From a virus (lineage: Duplodnaviria > Caudoviricetes): a DNA stretch of 53,474 nt. Numbering within the stretch: the stretch's first letter is position 1; each line of letters begins with the position of its first letter. Shown here in pieces: positions 5,286 through 50,078 of this stretch. The position numbers and the translations under genes are program-made. The notes beneath the pieces were generated by a model. The model made no database searches, was not told where the DNA came from, and saw nothing but the letters and a program-made list of their open reading frames with translations. Location of the stretch: positions 1-53,474 of the IMG/VR virus record IMGVR_UViG_3300045284_000563; one strand, given 5' to 3'.

Positions 5286-5560
5286 CTTTTTCTCTCCAGA
5301 GTTCTCATGGCCGCCGCGGCGTGATCGCGTGCGGCCCGAAACCGTTCCTTCGCCGAGCCAGGACGAATCGACTCCGAAACGCCGGAGAGGATCTTGTCGG
5401 CCCTGTTGAGCGCCTCAAGCCGTATTTCGGCGGACGCGAACAGTAGCGCATGCCGGATCTCGCTTGGGAGCTTACCCAGGCAGTTTCGACAGAACGACTG
5501 CCGGATCGGGATCGCCTTGCCGCAGCCGCGCGTACGGCAGGCGCTTTCGGTCGGGCTCAT
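5282..5560 (-). CDS. Small Zn-finger-like protein
   Basis: CxxxxC...CxxC; ATG coupled at 5560. Confidence 0.55.
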   Translation of the reverse strand: MSPTESACRTRGCGKAIPIRQSFCRNCLGKLPSEIRHALLFASAEIRLEALNRADKILSGVSESIRPGSAKERFRAARDHAAAAMRTLERKR

Positions 5561-6027
5561 GTGACGTCGTCTCCCATCACGAGTTCGTTTGGTACTTGAT
5601 CCGTCTTCTGTCGAAGCGGGTTGACGTTTTGCCAAAGCCCCTCCTCGTTCTCGTACGCAACGAAGCACGTCCAACTGCACCGGCCGTAACGCGCCAGAAC
5701 GAAGCGACATTCAATGCCGGCGCTCGCAGCGAGCACCATAACGAAGTAACAAGCTTCGTCCGCGTCCATTGGTTTGCGCAGGTCGGCAGACGCCGCTTCG
5801 TCCGGCAATATCGCCCGTATCATCTCCCCGTGGATGGGATCGGGCGCGTACACGCACCGGCGATGCAGTTCGTCGATGATCGCGTTCAACTTGTCTCGAC
5901 GGAGCGGTTTATCACCCGTCAATTTGTGGGCGAGATCACGAACGGCCGTCTTGGTGTGTTCGCGTGCGACGGCGATGTTGAGCGCTTTGATCGTCTTGGC
6001 GAGCCCGGTAGGAAATAAGTTCATCAT
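5557..6027 (-). CDS. Transglutaminase-like fold protein, catalytic residues apparently degenerate
   Basis: MDADEACYFVMVLAASAGIECRFV...W..VNP matches the GDCDD...GipaRfV...W...Dp pattern, with Ala at the catalytic Cys position. Confidence 0.5.
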   Translation of the reverse strand: MMNLFPTGLAKTIKALNIAVAREHTKTAVRDLAHKLTGDKPLRRDKLNAIIDELHRRCVYAPDPIHGEMIRAILPDEAASADLRKPMDADEACYFVMVLAASAGIECRFVLARYGRCSWTCFVAYENEEGLWQNVNPLRQKTDQVPNELVMGDDVT

Positions 6028-6224
6028 GAGTTTTTCGCCAGCATCTTGCGGTACTCGAGCAGGTCTCGCGCTCGGACGTCGAAACGCTCGCTCAGATCCA
6101 TCGCCAATTGAAAGTCCGGCGAGAGCAACGCGAACGAGCTCCGCAGCACTGCCGACACGAATGCCACGGCTTCCGCCTTGGTTTGAGGATTGCGCAAGGA
6201 GGCTACGTTGATTTCGGCTCTCAT
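6024..6224 (-). CDS. Hypothetical protein
   Basis: Coupled ORF. Confidence 0.55.
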   Translation of the reverse strand: MRAEINVASLRNPQTKAEAVAFVSAVLRSSFALLSPDFQLAMDLSERFDVRARDLLEYRKMLAKNS

Positions 6225-6466
6225 CGCTTCGTCCTCCGAGCGTCCCCGAGGAGCTCCAACGTGCGCTTGAGCACCGCATCGGCCTCGTCACCGTAGTGGC
6301 GAACGAGCACCTTCGCGATGGCGTGAGCGTCCGTGTCGTAGCCACGCATGTCGTCCCTCGAGTTCTTCTTGAGCGCCCGGTCGACCGCCGCGGGGGTGCC
6401 GGTTGGTTCGACGCCCGAATAGCGACCGTTTGGGCGTTTGGGCATTGGTTCTCCTGTGAAGGTCAC
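6221..6466 (-). CDS. Hypothetical protein
   Basis: Coupled ORF. Confidence 0.55.
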   Translation of the reverse strand: MTFTGEPMPKRPNGRYSGVEPTGTPAAVDRALKKNSRDDMRGYDTDAHAIAKVLVRHYGDEADAVLKRTLELLGDARRTKR

Positions 6467-6837
6467 AGTTCCCCCTCGAACCCCGCCTCGCGGTACAGAT
6501 TACAAATCGCGCCGTCGAGGAAGCCCCCGTCGAGCCGTCCGAGCTCGCCGTTCAAGAGCCCTCGGAAGCCGCGAAGGGCCGCTTCCCACTCCTTTCCGAG
6601 TACACCGTCTTCGGCGATCTTCGAGTCGTAGCGCGCCTCGTGGGCAGCTGCGTACGCGGCGAGGCTTCGGATGCCCAGAACGAGAGCACTTTCGAAGCCG
6701 TCAAACGGTGAATGCCACGCATAGTCGTGGCGGCTGATGTAACCGGTCGGATCGGCCGGGGTGCGTTTTCGCTGCTCGAGAACAGGGTTCCGAAGTGCGA
6801 GCGCGTAGTAGCGGGTTTGGATTTCATTGACGGTCAT
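6463..6837 (-). CDS. Hypothetical phage protein
   Basis: First gene of the leftward operon; globular composition (KIAEDGVLG...GLLNGELGRLDGG). Confidence 0.65.
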   Translation of the reverse strand: MTVNEIQTRYYALALRNPVLEQRKRTPADPTGYISRHDYAWHSPFDGFESALVLGIRSLAAYAAAHEARYDSKIAEDGVLGKEWEAALRGFRGLLNGELGRLDGGFLDGAICNLYREAGFEGEL

Positions 6838-6917
6838 GGCTAGTCAGACGAGCCTCGCTAATGTATATTCAACCGACCCCCATTGAATAACCTAACCGCA
6901 CCCCGCGTCTACCCCAT

Positions 6918-7457
6918 ATGCCCCTCGTGACCCTCCTTCTCGTGGCACTGAACGCGGCCGTTTACGCCCTCGAGCTCTCGAGCGGCGGGATGCCGGTCTG
7001 CGAGAAATTCGGCCTAGTTCCAGCCCATCCGGGCCTGGGCACGCTCCTCACCTACAGCTTTCTGCACGACCCTCGGACCCTCGTTCATCTGGGCTGTAAC
7101 ATGGCCTTTCTGGCCGTTTTCGGGACCGTGGTCGAAAGGGCCATCGGGGGCGCCCGGCTCCTCTGCCTCTACGCCCTCGCGGCGGTCGCCGGGGGCCTCT
7201 TGCATGGCGCGGTCGACCCGACGGCGACCGAAGCCTTGGTGGGCGCCAGCGGGTCGATTTTCGGGCTTATCGCATTCTCTGTCTCGATCAACCGTCGACT
7301 CGTCGGATTCGCCCTCGCGTTCGGCGCCATCAACGTCTGGTACGCGCTCGCCGGCACCGGCGGCAGTATCAGCTTCGGAGCCCACATCGGCGGCCTGCTC
7401 GTAGGCACCGTTTGCGCCCTCGTGCAAACGATCGTCGGGAAAGAGAGGTTTGCCTAA
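6918..7457 (+). CDS. Rhomboid-family intramembrane serine protease
   Basis: FLH...HLGCNM, GASG catalytic Ser motif, AHIGG catalytic His; multiple TM helices. Confidence 0.92.
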   Translation: MPLVTLLLVALNAAVYALELSSGGMPVCEKFGLVPAHPGLGTLLTYSFLHDPRTLVHLGCNMAFLAVFGTVVERAIGGARLLCLYALAAVAGGLLHGAVDPTATEALVGASGSIFGLIAFSVSINRRLVGFALAFGAINVWYALAGTGGSISFGAHIGGLLVGTVCALVQTIVGKERFA

Positions 7458-7460
7458 AAA

Positions 7461-7560
7461 CTTCGCAAAACTAAGCGCTGCAACCCCCGGCAGCGCAGCG
7501 CCGAGCGGCGCCGAGCAGGGCGCGCCTCCGCCACGCAAACCGAATCAAAGCTCACTTTTT
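7461..7560 (+). ncRNA. 5-nt-periodic tract 1 (candidate guide-like RNA)
   Basis: C at every fifth base from 7461 to 7551 (19 in a row), mostly as GC; ends GCAAACCGAATCAAAGCTCACTTTTT. Confidence 0.65.
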
Positions 7561-7578
7561 CACAAGGAGAACTCAATC

Positions 7579-8223
7579 GTGTCTTTTCAATACACAGAAA
7601 CTTGGATCGAAGGAACGATGCCGCTACTCATGGCGGCGTTCGGAACAGAAGCGGCCGAAAACGTACCCGGCGGTAGCGGCCCCAATACTCGACCGTCTAT
7701 CACAGCCGTCAAGCAGCTTACTCCGCGAGAGATCGCCGAGAAGAGCTGCTACCGCGAGAACGGGAAGCTCGACTCCCCACTCGTGTTCCCTGGCACCGGT
7801 GTACAACGCGCGATCGTCGAAGCCGGCGGCAACCACAAGGAGAAGGGCACCCGCAAGTCGATGAAGTATCGCGTGCCGGCCGCGGTACTCGTCCTCGACG
7901 AGCTTGCGCCGCTCTACAACGAAGACCGGAAAACGCGCATCACGACCTACGAAGTGGACAGTCGCCGGGTCGTCAATCCGAGCACGAAGGGCGCACTGCT
8001 CGCTCACCGTCCACGCATCGAACGCTGGACGTTGAAGTGCACGATTCGCATCAACGAGAACCTCATGGATCCGGCGTTCGTGAGACAGCTCCTCACTGAG
8101 GCCGGAGAACAACTCGGTATCGGCGCCTTTCGCCCCGAGAAGCGCGGACCATTCGGTCTGTTCCACGTCGTCGCGTGGGATTGCGTCGACGGGACGGCCG
8201 CCATGAAGCGGAAGGTAGCCTAA
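7579..8223 (+). CDS. Stand-alone RAMP / Cas7-like RNA-binding protein
   Basis: N-terminal strand IEGTMPLL, P..G..RAI helix, C-terminal Gly-rich loop GEQLGIGAFRPEKRGPFGLF. Likely start is GTG 7579 after AAGGAGA. Confidence 0.7.
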   Translation: MSFQYTETWIEGTMPLLMAAFGTEAAENVPGGSGPNTRPSITAVKQLTPREIAEKSCYRENGKLDSPLVFPGTGVQRAIVEAGGNHKEKGTRKSMKYRVPAAVLVLDELAPLYNEDRKTRITTYEVDSRRVVNPSTKGALLAHRPRIERWTLKCTIRINENLMDPAFVRQLLTEAGEQLGIGAFRPEKRGPFGLFHVVAWDCVDGTAAMKRKVA

Positions 8224-8230
8224 CAACTAA

Positions 8231-8343
8231 CGGCACAGCACGGCCCCGCGGGGCGGCGCATCGCGGCGCTCGGCCCAGCGCGCCCGAGCACGACGCCGCC
8301 GAGCACTGACTTGCCCCGCACACCAAATCAAAGGACCGTTTTT
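8231..8343 (+). ncRNA. 5-nt-periodic tract 2 (candidate guide-like RNA)
   Basis: cgGCa caGCa cgGCc ccGCg ggGCg gcGCa tcGCg gcGCt...; ends GCACACCAAATCAAAGGACCGTTTTT. Confidence 0.7.
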
Positions 8344-8345
8344 CG

Positions 8346-8563
8346 AACGTGCGTCGCCCAACCTCAAACAGAACTCCGCTGAGCGGTACGGTGCTCAGCA
8401 TGGCGCAACATCGCATTGCAAGGACGAGCAATGCTCGGCAAGTCTCGGCACCGCAGCGCCACGCACCGCTCAGCAAAGCAGCGCTCAGCAAAGCCACCCG
8501 AATCGGCGCGCCGCCGGGCTACGCATCGCTGCGCACAGCCGAGCAAACCAAAGGACACTTTTC
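8346..8563 (+). ncRNA. 5-nt-periodic tract 3 (long; candidate guide-like RNA)
   Basis: About 34 in-phase NN-GC-N units from 8376 to 8545; ends GCAAACCAAAGGACACTTTTC. Confidence 0.7.
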
Positions 8564-8569
8564 TCGCTC

Positions 8570-8875
8570 ATGAAATCGTCGAACACCCCCTTCCACTTCC
8601 CTCGCAACCGCGAGCGCTGGACCCCCGGCGAAGAGCGCAAGCTCCTCGAAATATACGCCTCAACCGGCCGCGTGTGGTGGTGCGGCTCGTGGCGTACGGC
8701 ACCGCGTTACCGGGCCGCGGAAGAGCTCGGACGATCGCCGTCAGCGGTGCAAGATCGTTTCATCGAGCTCCAGCGGTGCCGACAACGAGCGAGAGTTACG
8801 CCTACGCAGGACACACACGACAACACCGACGAGGACGGGTCGCCGCTCAACGCAGACAACGACCCGGACGCATGA
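8570..8875 (+). CDS. Myb/SANT-like HTH protein
   Basis: RWTPGEERKLLEIY...AAEELGRSPSAVQDRF. Confidence 0.65.
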   Translation: MKSSNTPFHFPRNRERWTPGEERKLLEIYASTGRVWWCGSWRTAPRYRAAEELGRSPSAVQDRFIELQRCRQRARVTPTQDTHDNTDEDGSPLNADNDPDA

Positions 8876-9390
8876 ACAATCAAGAAAGGAAACCATCCGT
8901 GAACGACGCCCCGCTTACCCGCTCGAAACACTCCTCGCCCCCTCGCCCCGCTCCCATGACGTCCGAGGACGTGATTCACGAGCTCGCCGAAGCGCTCCGC
9001 GACACCATCAACGAGATCGATGAGCTATACGTTCGAGCGAACCCTGAGAGCGCCTACCTCGATCTCGCGTGTAAGCTCATCTTCCGCATGAAAACGGTCA
9101 CCATCGTGCCTGTACACGCGCAGGTCGAATCTCGGGAAGCCGAGATACGCCAAGCCGAGGGCGAGGGTGCTGTGCGGATCTTCGAAGCGCTCGACCGGTG
9201 GCTTCTTGCGCGCGAGGCCGGCGCCCGATCCATCGAGACGGGCGTCAACGTCGCAGGTAGACGCGAAATCACGATGACCGAGGGTGCAAACACCAACTAC
9301 GAAGTGAAGGGGTTCTTTCAGGGCGAATCGCTTCAGGATGCCTGCGCGCAGGCGGCGCAGGTCTTGCTGTTCAACGGAGACGACTCGTGA
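8872..9390 (+). CDS. Hypothetical protein
   Basis: ATG 8872 coupled to the upstream stop; C-terminal part of ORF 8416..9390. Confidence 0.6.
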   Translation: MNNQERKPSVNDAPLTRSKHSSPPRPAPMTSEDVIHELAEALRDTINEIDELYVRANPESAYLDLACKLIFRMKTVTIVPVHAQVESREAEIRQAEGEGAVRIFEALDRWLLAREAGARSIETGVNVAGRREITMTEGANTNYEVKGFFQGESLQDACAQAAQVLLFNGDDS

Positions 9391-46886: not shown

Positions 46887-48320
46887 TCAAAAGTTCACGC
46901 GGGTCTGCTCGCCAGCAGAACCCGCACCTCCTGTCGATCCGCTGGCAGCGGTTCCTGCGCTTCCTCCGACGCCGAGCGCCGAATTGGCCGTTTGTGATTG
47001 CAGGTTGAATACGATTCCGAAACCACCAGCAGCTCCGCCTCCACCGTCACCGCCTCCAGCGCCTCCGCTGCCGGTGCCTCCAGTGCCTCCAGCGCCTCCG
47101 TCAATAGAGAGACCGCCTGTCACGGAGCCAATGATATTGCCTGCGACTACGATTCCGAAACCGCCACCACCGCCGGATCCTCCACCACCGCCGCCTCGAG
47201 CGCCTGCGGCGGGTGATCCACCGTTGCCGCCGGTTCCACCTTTGGCCGAGATGAAGCCGGCAGCCGCGCCTGTGACGATGAGCGTACGCGTTGCGAAAAG
47301 GAGGCCATGTCCGCCTTGCGCGCCGCCTCCACCTCCGCCGCCTGCTGTGCCGTCGCCTCCACCGCCACCGCCACCAGGACCACCGGCGCCACCGTTAAAC
47401 GAGAGCGCGCTACCAGTTACGCTGATGTTGACGCCGCGGTTGAAGATCGCCAACAGATCAAGGCGATGAGGGAGGTTGCCGCCGTCTCGAGTAACTGTGA
47501 TTCCCGCTCGCGTTGCGCCGCCCGGGTTTGCGCCCGCAGTACCGCCTTTGCCGGACGTACTTGTCGAGCCGCCTGACGATCCGTTTCTAGGTTGCGGTGC
47601 GGCAGCTTGATTGCCGCCTGCTGCGCCGCCCGCACCGCCTGCGGTGCCTAGACCTGCTGCGCTTGGAATGGTGAGCCCGTCTGCTTCGGTCGTGCCGCCG
47701 GCTGTGCCTGCTCCGCCGCCTGCGGCGCCGTTGCCTGCTGCTGCGCCCACACCGCGGAAGATCGTGTCCACAGGCATGCCTGTGAGATCGGTTATGCCGC
47801 TGCACCATAGCCGGAAGCCGGCGACGTCGATCTTTGCGGTTCCCGTGAGTGTGATCGACGAATAGTAGGTGTCGCGTGTGAGCGTCGTCGTGCCGCTTGA
47901 TTGACTCAGCGCTCCGTCGCTGCCATCCCCGAAGAGCGAGAAGAGCATGTACGAATTGACGAGTGCAGCGTTGGTAACGCCAGGTCCCGTTGGTCCAGTC
48001 GGTCCGGTGGGCCCGGTGGAGCCGCGTGGCCCAGTCGGTCCGGTGATGCCTTGAGCTCCACTAGGTCCGGTCGGTCCGGTGATGCTTACGCCGGCCGGAC
48101 CTGTCGGCCCTCCGGGGCCTGCCGATCCACCGGGACCCGTTGGTCCTGCTGATCCGCCTGGACCTGTCGGCCCCCCAGGGCCCGTTGGTCCACCTGGACC
48201 TGTTGGTCCTGCTGATCCGCCACCACCCGGGCCCGTTGGTCCCCCGGGACCTGTTGGACCGCTGCCGGAAGAGCCCGGCCCTGTGGGTCCTGTAGGCCCT
48301 TTGCAGATCAGAGGGATCAT
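46887..48320 (-). CDS. Collagen-like plus Gly-rich fibre protein
   Basis: GPTGPGG repeats, FGDGSDGAL, long GGGGG segments. Confidence 0.85.
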
Positions 48321-49065: not shown

Positions 49066-49998
49066 TTACACTTCTGCAATCGTGCTGCTGATGAGTGTGA
49101 CTGCCGTTTGCGCGAGTGCTCGACCGTTGAGGGTCGCACCGGCTTGCATGGCGATGCCTGTTGCTCCGAGAATTTCTCCGTTGACTGTCACACCCGGGAA
49201 GATGGTGACTTGTCCAGTCACGGCCCAGAAAACGTTTTCAGGGAGAATACCGCCCACTAGAAGCACGTCTTGATGAATGTCGAGCGTTCCTTGGACTTGG
49301 ATGATGATGCCGTCTCCAGCTCCGCCGTTTATCGTCAACGGGCCCGCAGTGATGCTGGAGGCGCCCGTGTATCGATAGACGAACCCAGCCGTGAGTGGCG
49401 AATCGGCGGCGATATCGCCACCGGCTGACGAGGTGTCCGGCGTTCTCCCTATGGCGTCGTTGTACGCGGTGATCATGTCGGCGCTGGCGAGCACCACCTT
49501 GGCGGGTGCCGGCACCGCGTAGTCGGGCGCAAATACGTGTCCGAGTTGCGGGGGCACTCCAGGAAACACTTGCGAGGACGTGGAGAACTGACCTCCGCCG
49601 TCGAGTACGAGTGCGAATCCTGTGATGCTCGCAGAGGCCGCCGGGTTGATACCCATGTCGCCGTCGACTGTCGATCCGCCTGTGGTCGTGATGCCAGATT
49701 GCGCGAAGATGGCGAAGTCGCCGGCCGTGAGTAGATCGACGAATTCCGTTGGAGGAGTAGGTCCCGTTGCTCCCGTCACTCCAGTAGATCCGCTAGGACC
49801 GGTGGAGCCACCCATACTGCGGAGACTGATTGCTTGGTCACGAGGGCGCGACGCCCAACTCCAGCCGCCGTACTCGCTGTCGAAATGTGGGGCGCCGTGC
49901 CGACGCTCTCGATACGCCGCTTCGTCAATGAGCTGCCTCGGCGCGCCGTTCTCTGAATGGCCGCCTTTGTTCTTCAGATTTTTCAATTTGCGGCGCAT
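49066..49998 (-). CDS. DUF3494 ice-binding-like protein with basic N-terminus and collagen linker
   Basis: FAIFAQSGIT...GDMGI.P...ITGF...TAYNDA.GR...NVFWAV...GATLNGRALAQTAVTL. Confidence 0.9.
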   Translation of the reverse strand: MRRKLKNLKNKGGHSENGAPRQLIDEAAYRERRHGAPHFDSEYGGWSWASRPRDQAISLRSMGGSTGPSGSTGVTGATGPTPPTEFVDLLTAGDFAIFAQSGITTTGGSTVDGDMGINPAASASITGFALVLDGGGQFSTSSQVFPGVPPQLGHVFAPDYAVPAPAKVVLASADMITAYNDAIGRTPDTSSAGGDIAADSPLTAGFVYRYTGASSITAGPLTINGGAGDGIIIQVQGTLDIHQDVLLVGGILPENVFWAVTGQVTIFPGVTVNGEILGATGIAMQAGATLNGRALAQTAVTLISSTIAEV

Positions 49999-50078
49999 GA
50001 GGTATCCTTTTGTGTGAAATAGCCCCGCGTCGCGTCAACGACCGGGGCTCGGCTCGGCCTCAAACTAGGAGGCGAACG

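Follow-up and report, generated by a model that had tools for sequence, protein, structure and literature searches.

A probable VIPR locus of an uncultured soil phage whose predicted guide RNAs share a short, unstructured 3′ tail

Introduction

Positions 7475-8563 of the 53,474 nt stretch of Caudoviricetes DNA analysed here (IMG/VR record IMGVR_UViG_3300045284_000563; hereafter the window) very probably constitute a VIPR locus of an uncultured soil phage, in which a Vipr gene is accompanied by three vrRNAs and the ending shared by three periodic intergenic tracts is the vrRNA 3′ tail. VIPR is already a known kind of system, and the locus is a further example of it. Particular to its clade are an xGC/NN repeat, which is the YNNNG variant of the VIPR preprint, and a short, unstructured tail that ends in a T-run and is not the pseudoknot of SUSP1. 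The clade may already be described in the supplementary figures of the preprints, among their types, repeat variants and tail structures.

VIPR (Viral Interference Programmable Repeat), a phage system of RNA-guided DNA silencing, was first described in 2026 (10.64898/2026.04.26.720920). According to that preprint, a VIPR locus consists of a Vipr protein and vrRNAs, each vrRNA carrying 9-16 YNNGG repeats followed by an invariable 3′ tail, and NNNGG, YNNNG and NNNNG repeat variants exist. It further reports that long intergenic regions flank vipr, that VIPR systems are mostly viral, that DNA targeting was shown experimentally, and that 667 VIPR systems were classified. In another preprint, an RNA that shares the consensus tail is counted as 'competent for Vipr complex formation' (10.64898/2026.10.15.759431). 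As the preprints present it, detailed study has so far covered only the SUSP1 and P. fulva clades; a structured tail (pseudoknot) is a feature of the SUSP1 clade and does not define the family, and the P. fulva complex in the structural preprint is also without a pseudoknot (10.64898/2026.04.26.720927). VIPR has been proposed to be a form of RNA-guided DNA recognition that is older than CRISPR and uses a gapped code.

Results

Three intergenic tracts have a five-nucleotide period

In the window sequence, GC recurs at every 5th nucleotide in three intergenic tracts (Table 1). The GC dinucleotide stands in phase in 11/13, 15/18 and 28/34 units of the vrRNA1, vrRNA2 and vrRNA3 tracts, respectively, and the in-phase C in 13/13, 17/18 and 33/34. 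At a threshold of at least 8/12 in-phase GC per 60-nt stretch, these were the only three places found in the window, and the best value outside the locus (7/12, at 49998-50027) falls on a hairpin and not on a tract. The base preceding GC is A, C, G or T in 27, 39, 23 and 9% of cases, respectively, indicating that the first G of GGY is not conserved. The sense strand of the tracts is A-rich and T-poor, which gives them a strong strand asymmetry. Single-sequence RNA folding of the tracts with their tails indicated a stability not beyond that of shuffled sequences (z about -0.9; z=-0.86 for the vrRNA1 tract). The intergenic regions flanking vipr measure 121 nt upstream and 346 nt downstream, and a 34-nt spacer (8344-8377) separates the vrRNA2 tail from the vrRNA3 tract. 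This third tract contains the in-phase tail-like words AAGGAC (8420) and CCGAATC (8498), the latter occurring only three times on the + strand of the window, once in the vrRNA3 tract and once in tail 1 among them, and it also carries a 15-nt tandem duplication at 8463-8494 (TRF: period 15, 2.1 copies).

Table 1. Coordinates of the features in and around the probable VIPR locus of the window
Feature	Position	Strand	Description
Rhomboid-family membrane protease gene	6918..7457	+	Pfam PF01694, E=7.5e-20; directly upstream of vrRNA1
vrRNA1 guide tract (predicted)	7475..7536	+	13 pentamers, form xGC/NN
vrRNA1 3′ tail (predicted)	7537..7560	+	AAACC GAATC AAAG CTCAC TTTTT
vipr gene, 214-aa Cas7-like RAMP protein	7579..8223	+	PHROG 4652, E=2e-10
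vrRNA2 guide tract (predicted)	8233..8319	+	18 pentamers
vrRNA2 3′ tail (predicted)	8320..8343	+	ACACC AAATC AAAG GACCG TTTTT; no gene after
vrRNA3 tract (predicted)	8378..8544	+	34 pentamers
vrRNA3 3′ tail (predicted)	8545..8563	+	AAACC AAAG GACAC TTTTC; lacks one pentamer relative to tails 1 and 2
Myb-like DNA-binding protein gene	8570..8875	+	Pfam PF13921, E=7.3e-07; directly after tail 3

The three tracts close with a common ending in repeat register

All three tracts close, in register, with A[AC]AYC-(RAATC)-AAAG-N5-TTTT, and the corresponding strings, GCAAACCGAATCAAAGCTCACTTTTT (7535-7560), GCACACCAAATCAAAGGACCGTTTTT (8318-8343) and GCAAACCAAAGGACACTTTTC (8543-8563), each follow directly on their tract. 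The original prediction had claimed a common 3′ handle on all three periodic tracts, and the exact strings confirm it: the summed pairwise local-alignment score of the three endings was 39, against a mean of 15.5 (sd 2.4) for random triples of window 26-mers, and was reached by 0/5000 random triples and by 0/5000 shuffles of the endings themselves. When both strands of the window were scanned with a regular expression for the ending, written post hoc, it matched three times, each time at a tract end, against a mean of 0.01 in shuffled sequence. Aligned by pentamers, the endings read AAACC GAATC AAAGC, ACACC AAATC AAAGG and AAACC (gap) AAAGG, and since this register is kept, the third copy lacks exactly one unit, as the original prediction had stated.

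Looser patterns for the ending were less specific. The search of the window for CAAAGGAC-NN-TTTT that had been suggested as a way to find orphan units returned two exact matches; with two mismatches it returned five, including the third ending, 41969 on the - strand and 42948 on the + strand, which is not above chance because 10/100 shuffles give at least five. The tail pattern AAAYCAAAGGACNNTTT occurred in at least 119 stretches of viral contigs, and no upstream periodic tract was present among the matches listed, so that these are taken as chance matches and the pattern as too short for use. Comparison of flanks within 61 loci showed a weak difference in likeness between the 3′ and 5′ sides (mean 10.5 vs 9.0, random 5.7), which is confounded by tract calls that split back-to-back tracts. 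As to structure, RNAalifold found no consensus structure in the tail (energy -0.31 kcal/mol, with two invariant pairs, both outside the tail), which sets it apart from the SUSP1 pseudoknot, the only tail with a structurally seen role. A terminator scan called nothing at the tails because no hairpin precedes the T-runs.

The gene within the locus encodes a Vipr homologue

Vipr proteins are minimal RAMPs with a single RRM and a glycine-rich loop, and the 214-aa protein was assigned to them through its family. A profile of 61 relatives matched PDB 36pp, "SUSP1 Vipr protein", with E=2.5e-42 over profile positions 14-196, and the window protein matched the family HMM with E=5.4e-67. Used as a single query, the window protein had no PDB match at E<=1, so its relationship to SUSP1 Vipr depends on the family profile together with the fold. 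Its AF2 model has a pLDDT of 91.3, and the best Foldseek matches of the model are Csm3/Cas7 chains (E about 3e-7). Across the family, G176, G180, G182 and R185 of the glycine-rich loop are nearly invariant and G193 is invariant. No Pfam family was matched by the 214-aa protein or its 61 relatives, the phage GenBank collection gave neither a blastn match for 7400-8900 nor a tblastn match for the protein, and a search of genome contigs with the protein found no relative.

The tail and the GC frame persist while the variable letters are replaced

Viral contigs were scanned on DNA alone with the pattern (GCNNN)x10, i.e. ten in-phase GC, which yielded 120 loci, 10 of them plain microsatellites. A Vipr homologue lay within 3 kb of 78/110 non-microsatellite loci, usually abutting the tracts (80/112 when the window and the related locus L001 are included). 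The tracts were always oriented as the genes are, with the tail on one side only. In many other loci, a ribosome-binding site and ATG begin within a few nucleotides of the tract end. Hairpin-plus-T-run terminators were read by eye after the tracts of L037, L040 and L043. At gathering thresholds, Rfam gave no match in the window, and 20 related loci gave one ordinary tRNA only.

The clade was compared in four genomes, namely the window, L001, which is located on an 80-kb IMG/VR contig, L241 and L242, the Vipr proteins of the last three being 99.5%, 90% and 83% identical to that of the window, respectively. The tail motif was found in 10/10 units of these four genomes, bearing out the expectation in the original prediction that the handle would recur at homologous loci. 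The tail opens with one or two A-rich pseudo-repeats (AAAYC, RAATC), in which the in-phase C is kept and the G is lost; CAAAG, which is invariant, comes next and is separated by 1-6 variable letters from a run of 3-6 T. The original prediction had also read the handle as delimiting discrete RNA units. Its retention in every unit and its fit to the published vrRNA tail support this reading, except that the 34-unit tract with decayed tail-like words inside it means that some guide-length blocks are not closed by a tail.

Between the window and L001, the vipr coding sequences are 94% identical in nucleotides, and the variable positions agree at a near-random 13/36 in vr1 and 12/48 in vr2 and at 70/72 in vr3; the GC frame and the tail persist despite the turnover of letters in vr1 and vr2. 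The claim that arrays grow or shrink in 5-nt steps held up in this comparison. GAATC is present in the vr1 tail of the window and missing from the orthologous tail of L001, a 5-nt deletion at 8422 is found in L001 and in run X4, and, together with the 15-nt duplication, the three clear length changes are all multiples of 5 nt. Contigs of four soil DNA runs were included in the comparison and added only an L001-like 80-kb variant with the 5-nt deletion; the 1-3-nt indels encountered there belong to unrelated low-identity contigs.

Neighbouring genes and target search

The genes of the window include a phage primase/polymerase, helicases, an exonuclease and a tail fibre. A rhomboid homologue lies directly upstream of vipr in 4/4 clade loci, with amino acid identities to that of the window of 69% in L001, 49% in L241 and 48% in L242. 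A rhomboid protease is not DNA-interacting, unlike the predicted nature of the published vaps. The Myb-like gene is absent in L001, where tail 3 precedes a homologue of 8899-9390, and it had no homologue in any of the 242 loci; it is a candidate accessory (vap-like) gene that is not conserved. No conserved DNA-binding accessory gene was found beside vipr. Six neighbouring ORFs (5557-9390) compared with Pfam and PHROGs gave no match to a Cas family, and those that could be named were the rhomboid and the Myb-like gene.

DNA targets of the predicted guides were sought in 4.29 Mb (the window and 242 loci, both strands) under a rule of one skipped nucleotide and five other spacing rules, and none scored above shuffled guides; the best score for vr1 was 19/26 against a null mean of 19.1. 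The rule with three skipped bases, which served as positive control, recovered only the tracts themselves.

Discussion

Alternative explanations of the shared ending

It is very unlikely that the shared ending lies outside any RNA unit and instead directs translation of the gene that follows, as a ribosome-binding or standby site (AAAGGA), or its transcription, as a promoter element. AAAGGA is similar to the Shine-Dalgarno core, start codons lie just downstream of tails 1 and 3, and the tract ends seen close to a ribosome-binding site and ATG in many other loci point the same way; but tail 1, whose core is AAAGCT and not AAAGGA, stands 18 nt before the GTG start of vipr, which has its own AAGGAG ribosome-binding site, and tail 3 lies 14 nt from the ATG of the downstream gene. 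Moreover, tail 2 of the window and tails 2a and 2b of L001 precede another tract and not a gene, and because a 34-nt spacer and the next tract follow it, tail 2 is not a ribosome-binding site. A promoter would not fit into the 18 nt that separate tail 1 from GTG, and a sigma-70 scan found none at any tail.

TRAP sites are laid out as a triplet with a two-nucleotide spacer, repeated through a 5′ leader. The triplet-plus-two period of the tracts resembles this layout, the tracts are unstructured and the T-run is terminator-like, so that they might be the sites of a TRAP-type ring- or filament-forming RNA-binding regulator, with the ending as attenuator or terminator and no DNA targeting. We consider this slightly less probable again: the gene beside the tracts encodes a Vipr-homologous RAMP and not a TRAP-like protein, no hairpin precedes the T-run, and near-identical phages differ wholesale in their variable letters, which is the pattern of guides and not of operator sites; the experiments published for VIPR, as the preprint reports them, show DNA targeting (10.64898/2026.04.26.720920). 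Just as improbable is that the tracts act as DNA, either as degenerate pentanucleotide satellites bound by a protein (e.g. Myb-like) or as an origin or partition site, the ending then being a decayed satellite edge. GC is self-complementary and so gives the periodicity on both strands, the tail opens with decayed repeats, and a gene for a Myb-like DNA-binding protein adjoins it. Against this stand the strong strand asymmetry of the T-poor, A-rich sense strand, the one-sided tail in an orientation that is always that of the genes, the CAAAG invariant in 10/10 units, which is unexpected under plain decay, the lack of the Myb-like gene in relatives that retain the tracts, and the terminators read after tracts in other loci. 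Rho, Hfq or CsrA sites, G-quadruplexes, primase sites, partition or terminase sites and Shine-Dalgarno-like standby arrays had been entertained before the protein match and were dropped. Literature searches on 5-nt or pentanucleotide intergenic periodicity in phage gave nothing relevant.

Proposed function of the tracts and of the tail

By homology with published VIPR, each 5-nt unit (xGC and NN) of the predicted vrRNAs would be held by one Vipr protomer, with the constant GC as the anchor between RNA and protein. In each unit, the two variable letters would pair with the double-stranded DNA of a competing mobile element, one base being skipped per unit, and this pairing would silence transcription of that element. 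[quoted passage not shown] Any of the roles offered for the handle in the original prediction, namely processing, termination or loading, may apply in this clade. With the pentamer as the unit, tracts and tails grow and shrink by multiples of 5 nt. In noting the common handle, the original, sequence-only reading had picked out the portion of the predicted guide RNAs that stays constant.

A wider joint reading is tentative and on balance doubtful. The clade would have an uncharacterised tail type, an unstructured in-register cap composed of one or two guanine-less pseudo-repeats (AAAYC/RAATC), the invariant CAAAG and the U-run, which Vipr would read as the filament end and the RNA release point; the upstream rhomboid protease would be a new, membrane-linked VIPR accessory; and the 34-unit tract, in which decayed tail words survive internally, would represent long or staggered arrays arising by tail loss between neighbouring units.

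With this locus, VIPR gains a clade of uncultured soil phage in which the constant motif is relaxed (xGC) and the tail is minimal and unstructured. Should such a tail suffice for assembly, it would narrow the 3′-end needs of the Vipr filament and could offer a shorter scaffold for reprogrammed guides. Replacement of guides with the tail and frame kept, as seen against the 94%-identical relative, is how a programmable system engaged in an arms race would be expected to behave. Furthermore, a plain ten-unit GC-period pattern recovers VIPR loci, as judged by the Vipr homologues near 78/110 of the non-microsatellite loci.

Comparison with known systems

TRAP sites share with the present tracts triplets at about 5-nt spacing and an unstructured leader, but the protein family is unrelated, attenuator hairpins are absent here, and the variable letters here are guide-like. 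The crRNAs of class 1 CRISPR, carried on a Cas7 filament, are likewise composed of a variable guide and a constant, repeat-derived handle, with one RAMP subunit per fixed number of nucleotides and a shared fold; their period is 6 nt with 5 guide letters, whereas the units here have a period of 5 nt and 2 guide letters each. CRISPR-type repeats and spacers of 28-37 nt were not found in the window, nor was acquisition machinery. Membership in class 1 CRISPR-Cas was rejected, as no such repeat family was found in the window, no Cas family was matched by the six neighbouring ORFs, and only the RAMP fold is common.

The YNNNG VIPR variants described in the Methods of the preprint (10.64898/2026.04.26.720920) have the same repeat pattern as the tracts here, C-NN-x-G. 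The VIPR of SUSP1, an Escherichia phage (type II, PDB 36pp; 10.64898/2026.04.26.720920, 10.64898/2026.04.26.720927), is, as described there, phage-encoded like the present locus. It too has a small RAMP, to which the protein here is homologous at profile level, units of 5 nt that combine a constant part with two variable letters, and a 3′ tail that is invariable among all vrRNAs of the locus. The layout is similar as well, with one vrRNA upstream of vipr and the others downstream (three in SUSP1, two here). As far as the preprints describe it, SUSP1 differs in having a constant part GGY (here xGC) and a tail of ~40 nt with a pseudoknot, whereas the tail here is ~19-24 nt, A-rich, unstructured, in repeat register and ended by a T-run. 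The neighbours here are a rhomboid protease and, in the window phage only, a Myb-like protein. Finally, the published tract length is 9-16 units against 34 in vrRNA3; the preprint (10.64898/2026.04.26.720920; legends of figs S17-S19) reports staggered and hammerhead-interspersed arrays as well as long arrays whose successive vrRNAs merge, and, by analogy, such merging of vrRNAs could explain the 34-unit tract.

A common 3′ tail on three GC-phased tracts

In each of the three predicted guide tracts, vrRNA1, vrRNA2 and vrRNA3, a GC dinucleotide came back in most units in one 5-nt phase up to the shared ending. Within the 53,474-base window, an in-phase GC of at least 8/12 per 60 nt was found nowhere beyond the three tracts, and the highest value outside them was 7/12, at a hairpin near 50,000. 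The tracts had no match in Rfam, and the fold stability of the tract RNA was nothing unusual (z = -0.86 and -0.94). The 5-nt phase of vrRNA2 carries on into vrRNA3 through the intervening tail and spacer (8233-8379), the last GC of the former lying 60 nt ahead of the first GC of the latter; an accidental phase match is expected in one case out of five.

Tracts, tails and neighbouring genes of the locus, with the tails written in pentamer register
Feature	Record	Position	Strand	Units	In-phase GC	In-phase C	Sequence
vrRNA1 (tract 1)	window	7475-7536	+	13	11/13	13/13	
Tail 1	window	7537-7560					AAACC GAATC AAAGC TCAC TTTTT
vrRNA2 (tract 2)	window	8233-8319	+	18	15/18	17/18	
Tail 2	window	8320-8343					ACACC AAATC AAAGG ACCG TTTTT
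vrRNA3 (tract 3)	window	8378-8544	+	34	28/34	33/34	
Tail 3	window	8545-8563					AAACC AAAGG ACAC TTTTC
vipr	window	7579-8223	+				
Myb-like gene	window	8570-8875					
Tail-fibre gene	window	46887-48320	-				
Rhomboid gene	window	6918-7457					
Rhomboid gene	L001	2350-2817					
Rhomboid gene	L241	1231-1707					
Rhomboid gene	L242	1910-2401					

The three ending strings named in the original prediction were recovered exactly in the window (7535-7560, 8318-8343 and 8543-8563), and the pentamer register of the tracts was found to continue through all of them; because this register is kept, the third ending is indeed shorter by exactly one 5-nt unit. The summed pair score of the three endings was 39, a similarity reached by 0/5000 triples of random window 26-mers (mean 15.5) and by 0/5000 shuffles of the endings. 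The tail starts with pseudo-repeats in which the in-phase C is retained and the G is lost. No consensus structure was predicted for the tail (energy -0.31 kcal/mol), and no hairpin was found ahead of the T-run at the window tails.

A conserved 3′ handle had been proposed as well, and 10/10 units of four genomes carried the ending motif (G/C)C-AAAYC-(RAATC)-AAAG-N1-6-T3-6, in which CAAAG is invariant. These units comprise the three of the window, four of its close relative L001, which lies on an 80-kb viral contig, and all three visible units of the metagenome contigs L241 and L242, whose Vipr proteins share 90% and 83% identity with that of the window, respectively. The tails of the nearest other Vipr clades (36-45% identity) are quite different, so tail type and Vipr clade correspond; specific recognition would account for this match, and so would common descent alone. 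A comparable layout, in which a final partial repeat leads into a T-rich run, recurs in several unrelated clades, such as ...ATGGC ATGG TTTTTTT in L060 and ...AACGC AACG TTTTT in L088.

Guide turnover and 5-nt steps

Between the window and L001, the gene between the tracts has 94% nucleotide identity, and the variable letters were identical at 13/36 positions in vrRNA1 and 12/48 in vrRNA2, with the GC frame and the ending retained; those of tract 3 were nearly unchanged (70/72 identical). The prediction that arrays change in 5-nt steps held for three clear events, a small number, all of them multiples of five. The RAATC pentamer is present in three tails and missing from the others, and the orthologous vrRNA1 tails of the window and L001 differ by it; 5 nt are missing at 8422 both in L001 and in an L001-matching 80-kb contig of sequencing run X4; and 15 nt are tandemly duplicated at 8463-8494. 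Tract 3 also contains, in phase, AAGGAC (8420) and CCGAATC (8498), otherwise words of the tail, and CCGAATC has only three + strand occurrences in the window. This composition suggests that tract 3 may be three units fused into one long or staggered array after two tails decayed.

A protein family beside the tracts

Viral contigs were scanned with ten GC at 5-nt spacing as the only rule, which returned at least 120 loci. Ten of the 120 loci listed were plain pentanucleotide microsatellites; the other 110 listed divided into 84 with a conserved GGC triplet plus two variable letters and 26 with another or weaker third letter (TGC, CGC, GCG, GCA or GC only), neither count includes the window and L001, which also belong to the latter kind. 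Many of the listed loci are arrays of tracts with a constant segment between them. Clustering every ORF located up to 3 kb from a tract gave one dominant family, consisting of homologues of the 214-aa window ORF at 7579-8223. A Vipr homologue lay near the tracts in 78/110 of the listed non-microsatellite loci, or 80/112 with the window and L001, and the 32 loci without it include short loci and contig ends.

Pfam held no family for the window protein or its 61 relatives, and PHROGs placed the window protein in family 4652, functionally unannotated. The profile of the 61 relatives (A2) strongly matched one solved structure, 'SUSP1 Vipr protein' (PDB 36pp, E = 2.5e-42); queried by itself, the window protein drew no PDB hit at E ≤ 1, and is thus a distant member reached via the family. 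Its AlphaFold model was confident (pLDDT 91.3), and the top Foldseek matches were to Csm3 (E about 3e-7, TM about 0.5), which serves as Cas7 in type III-A CRISPR complexes. In the family alignment, G176, G180, G182 and R185 are nearly invariant and G193 is invariant, residues that make up the RAMP-typical glycine-rich loop.

Several further features were observed among the scanned loci (L002-L121). The constant triplet varies by clade (TGC in L006, L024 and L057; CGC in L041, L020, L076 and L089; GCG in L014 and L094; GCA in L090; GC alone elsewhere), and the sense-strand variable letters are purine- and A-rich. Very long uninterrupted tracts occur in L012 (6332-6998, 133 pentamers in one phase), L047, L110, L041 and L098, and several loci hold >100 units in total, far above a 12-protomer filament. 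In L009, L017, L028, L031, L034, L039, L060 and others many tracts end 10-45 nt upstream of a ribosome-binding site and the start codon of the following gene, often vipr; a single transcript may thus give rise to both the vrRNA ahead of vipr and the vipr mRNA. By eye, an intrinsic-terminator-like GC-rich hairpin and T-run follow the tract in L037, L040 and L043. The post-tract constant segment of L034 (six units), L025, L005 and L030 bears a GGTTCGAnTCC hairpin resembling a tRNA T-arm, and ARAGORN called a 'tRNA-Ala(ggc)' across one L034 unit, where the Rfam tRNA model had no match. This hairpin may be a tRNA-like processing signal; a VIPR type with such a hairpin was not found named in the available portions of the VIPR preprints.

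Neighbouring genes

Immediately ahead of vrRNA1 and vipr, 4/4 clade members carry a rhomboid-family protease gene, which diverges faster than Vipr (48-69% vs 83-99.5% amino acid identity). The gene is a possible clade-specific accessory; its product is not DNA-interacting, as those of the published VIPR accessory (vap) genes are predicted to be. Directly behind tail 3 lies a Myb-like DNA-binding gene (Pfam PF13921) that, among the loci compared, only the window carries. L001 lacks it (about 4140), the same tail there being followed by a homologue of window 8899-9390; the two thus differ by an insertion or deletion the size of a gene that falls precisely on the tail boundary. The window is the entire assembly for this genome, and its remaining genes are phage-like (primase/polymerase, three helicases, exonuclease and tail fibre). 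Collagen-like 9-nt and 63-nt tandem repeats were located by TRF in the tail-fibre gene (between 47033 and 48221).

The tail as part of a VIPR locus

One alternative is that the ending is a ribosome-binding site or promoter; some tails precede another tract, for which this role is excluded, and the spacing also rules it out. Nor do the tracts and ending fit a TRAP-like attenuator, a reading at odds with both the protein family and the way the variable letters are replaced. A satellite acting purely as DNA would leave unexplained the asymmetry between strands, the invariant CAAAG on one side only and the apparent terminators after tracts in other loci.

Three 2026 preprints describe VIPR (Viral Interference Programmable Repeat) systems. 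Vipr is a minimal RAMP protein, and adjoining intergenic regions encode vrRNAs of 9-16 YNNGG repeats, in which constant GGY alternates with hypervariable NN before an 'invariable 3′ extension', the tail, for which the SUSP1 clade has a pseudoknot fold; pairing of the NN letters to double-stranded DNA, one base being skipped per unit, represses transcription, the natural targets being satellites and prophages (10.64898/2026.04.26.720920). The same text reports NNNGG, YNNNG and NNNNG variants at some loci, staggered and hammerhead-ribozyme-interspersed arrays, and a classification into seven types and six vap families (10.64898/2026.04.26.720920). Structurally, twelve Vipr protomers sit on the vrRNA with the pseudoknot capping its 3′ end, the 3′-proximal protomers are resolved first in assembly intermediates, and the P. 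fulva complex is without that pseudoknot (10.64898/2026.04.26.720927). Satellites encode 'solo' vrRNAs with the same tail, and the consensus tail is treated as making RNA competent for Vipr complex formation (10.64898/2026.10.15.759431).

No DNA targets of the window guides were found under six spacing rules in 4.29 Mb including the window, where the best matches equalled those of shuffled guides. On the + strand, the tracts read xGC-NN-xGC-NN... and then the constant ending, the same polarity as SUSP1 and published VIPR (GGY-NN...tail), and they lie on the gene strand. The base before GC is unconserved (A 27, C 39, G 23, T 9%), so the repeat is of the YNNNG variant. One vrRNA is upstream of vipr and two are downstream, an arrangement resembling that of SUSP1, and tract 3 has 34 units against the published 9-16. 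Because repeat pattern, polarity, strand and layout fit VIPR, the predicted 3′ handle is best read as a vrRNA tail, an identification supported by homology to the characterised system. Since this kind of system is already known from the April to October 2026 preprints, the evidence supports the locus as a further VIPR member, one set apart by its relaxed repeat and minimal tail.
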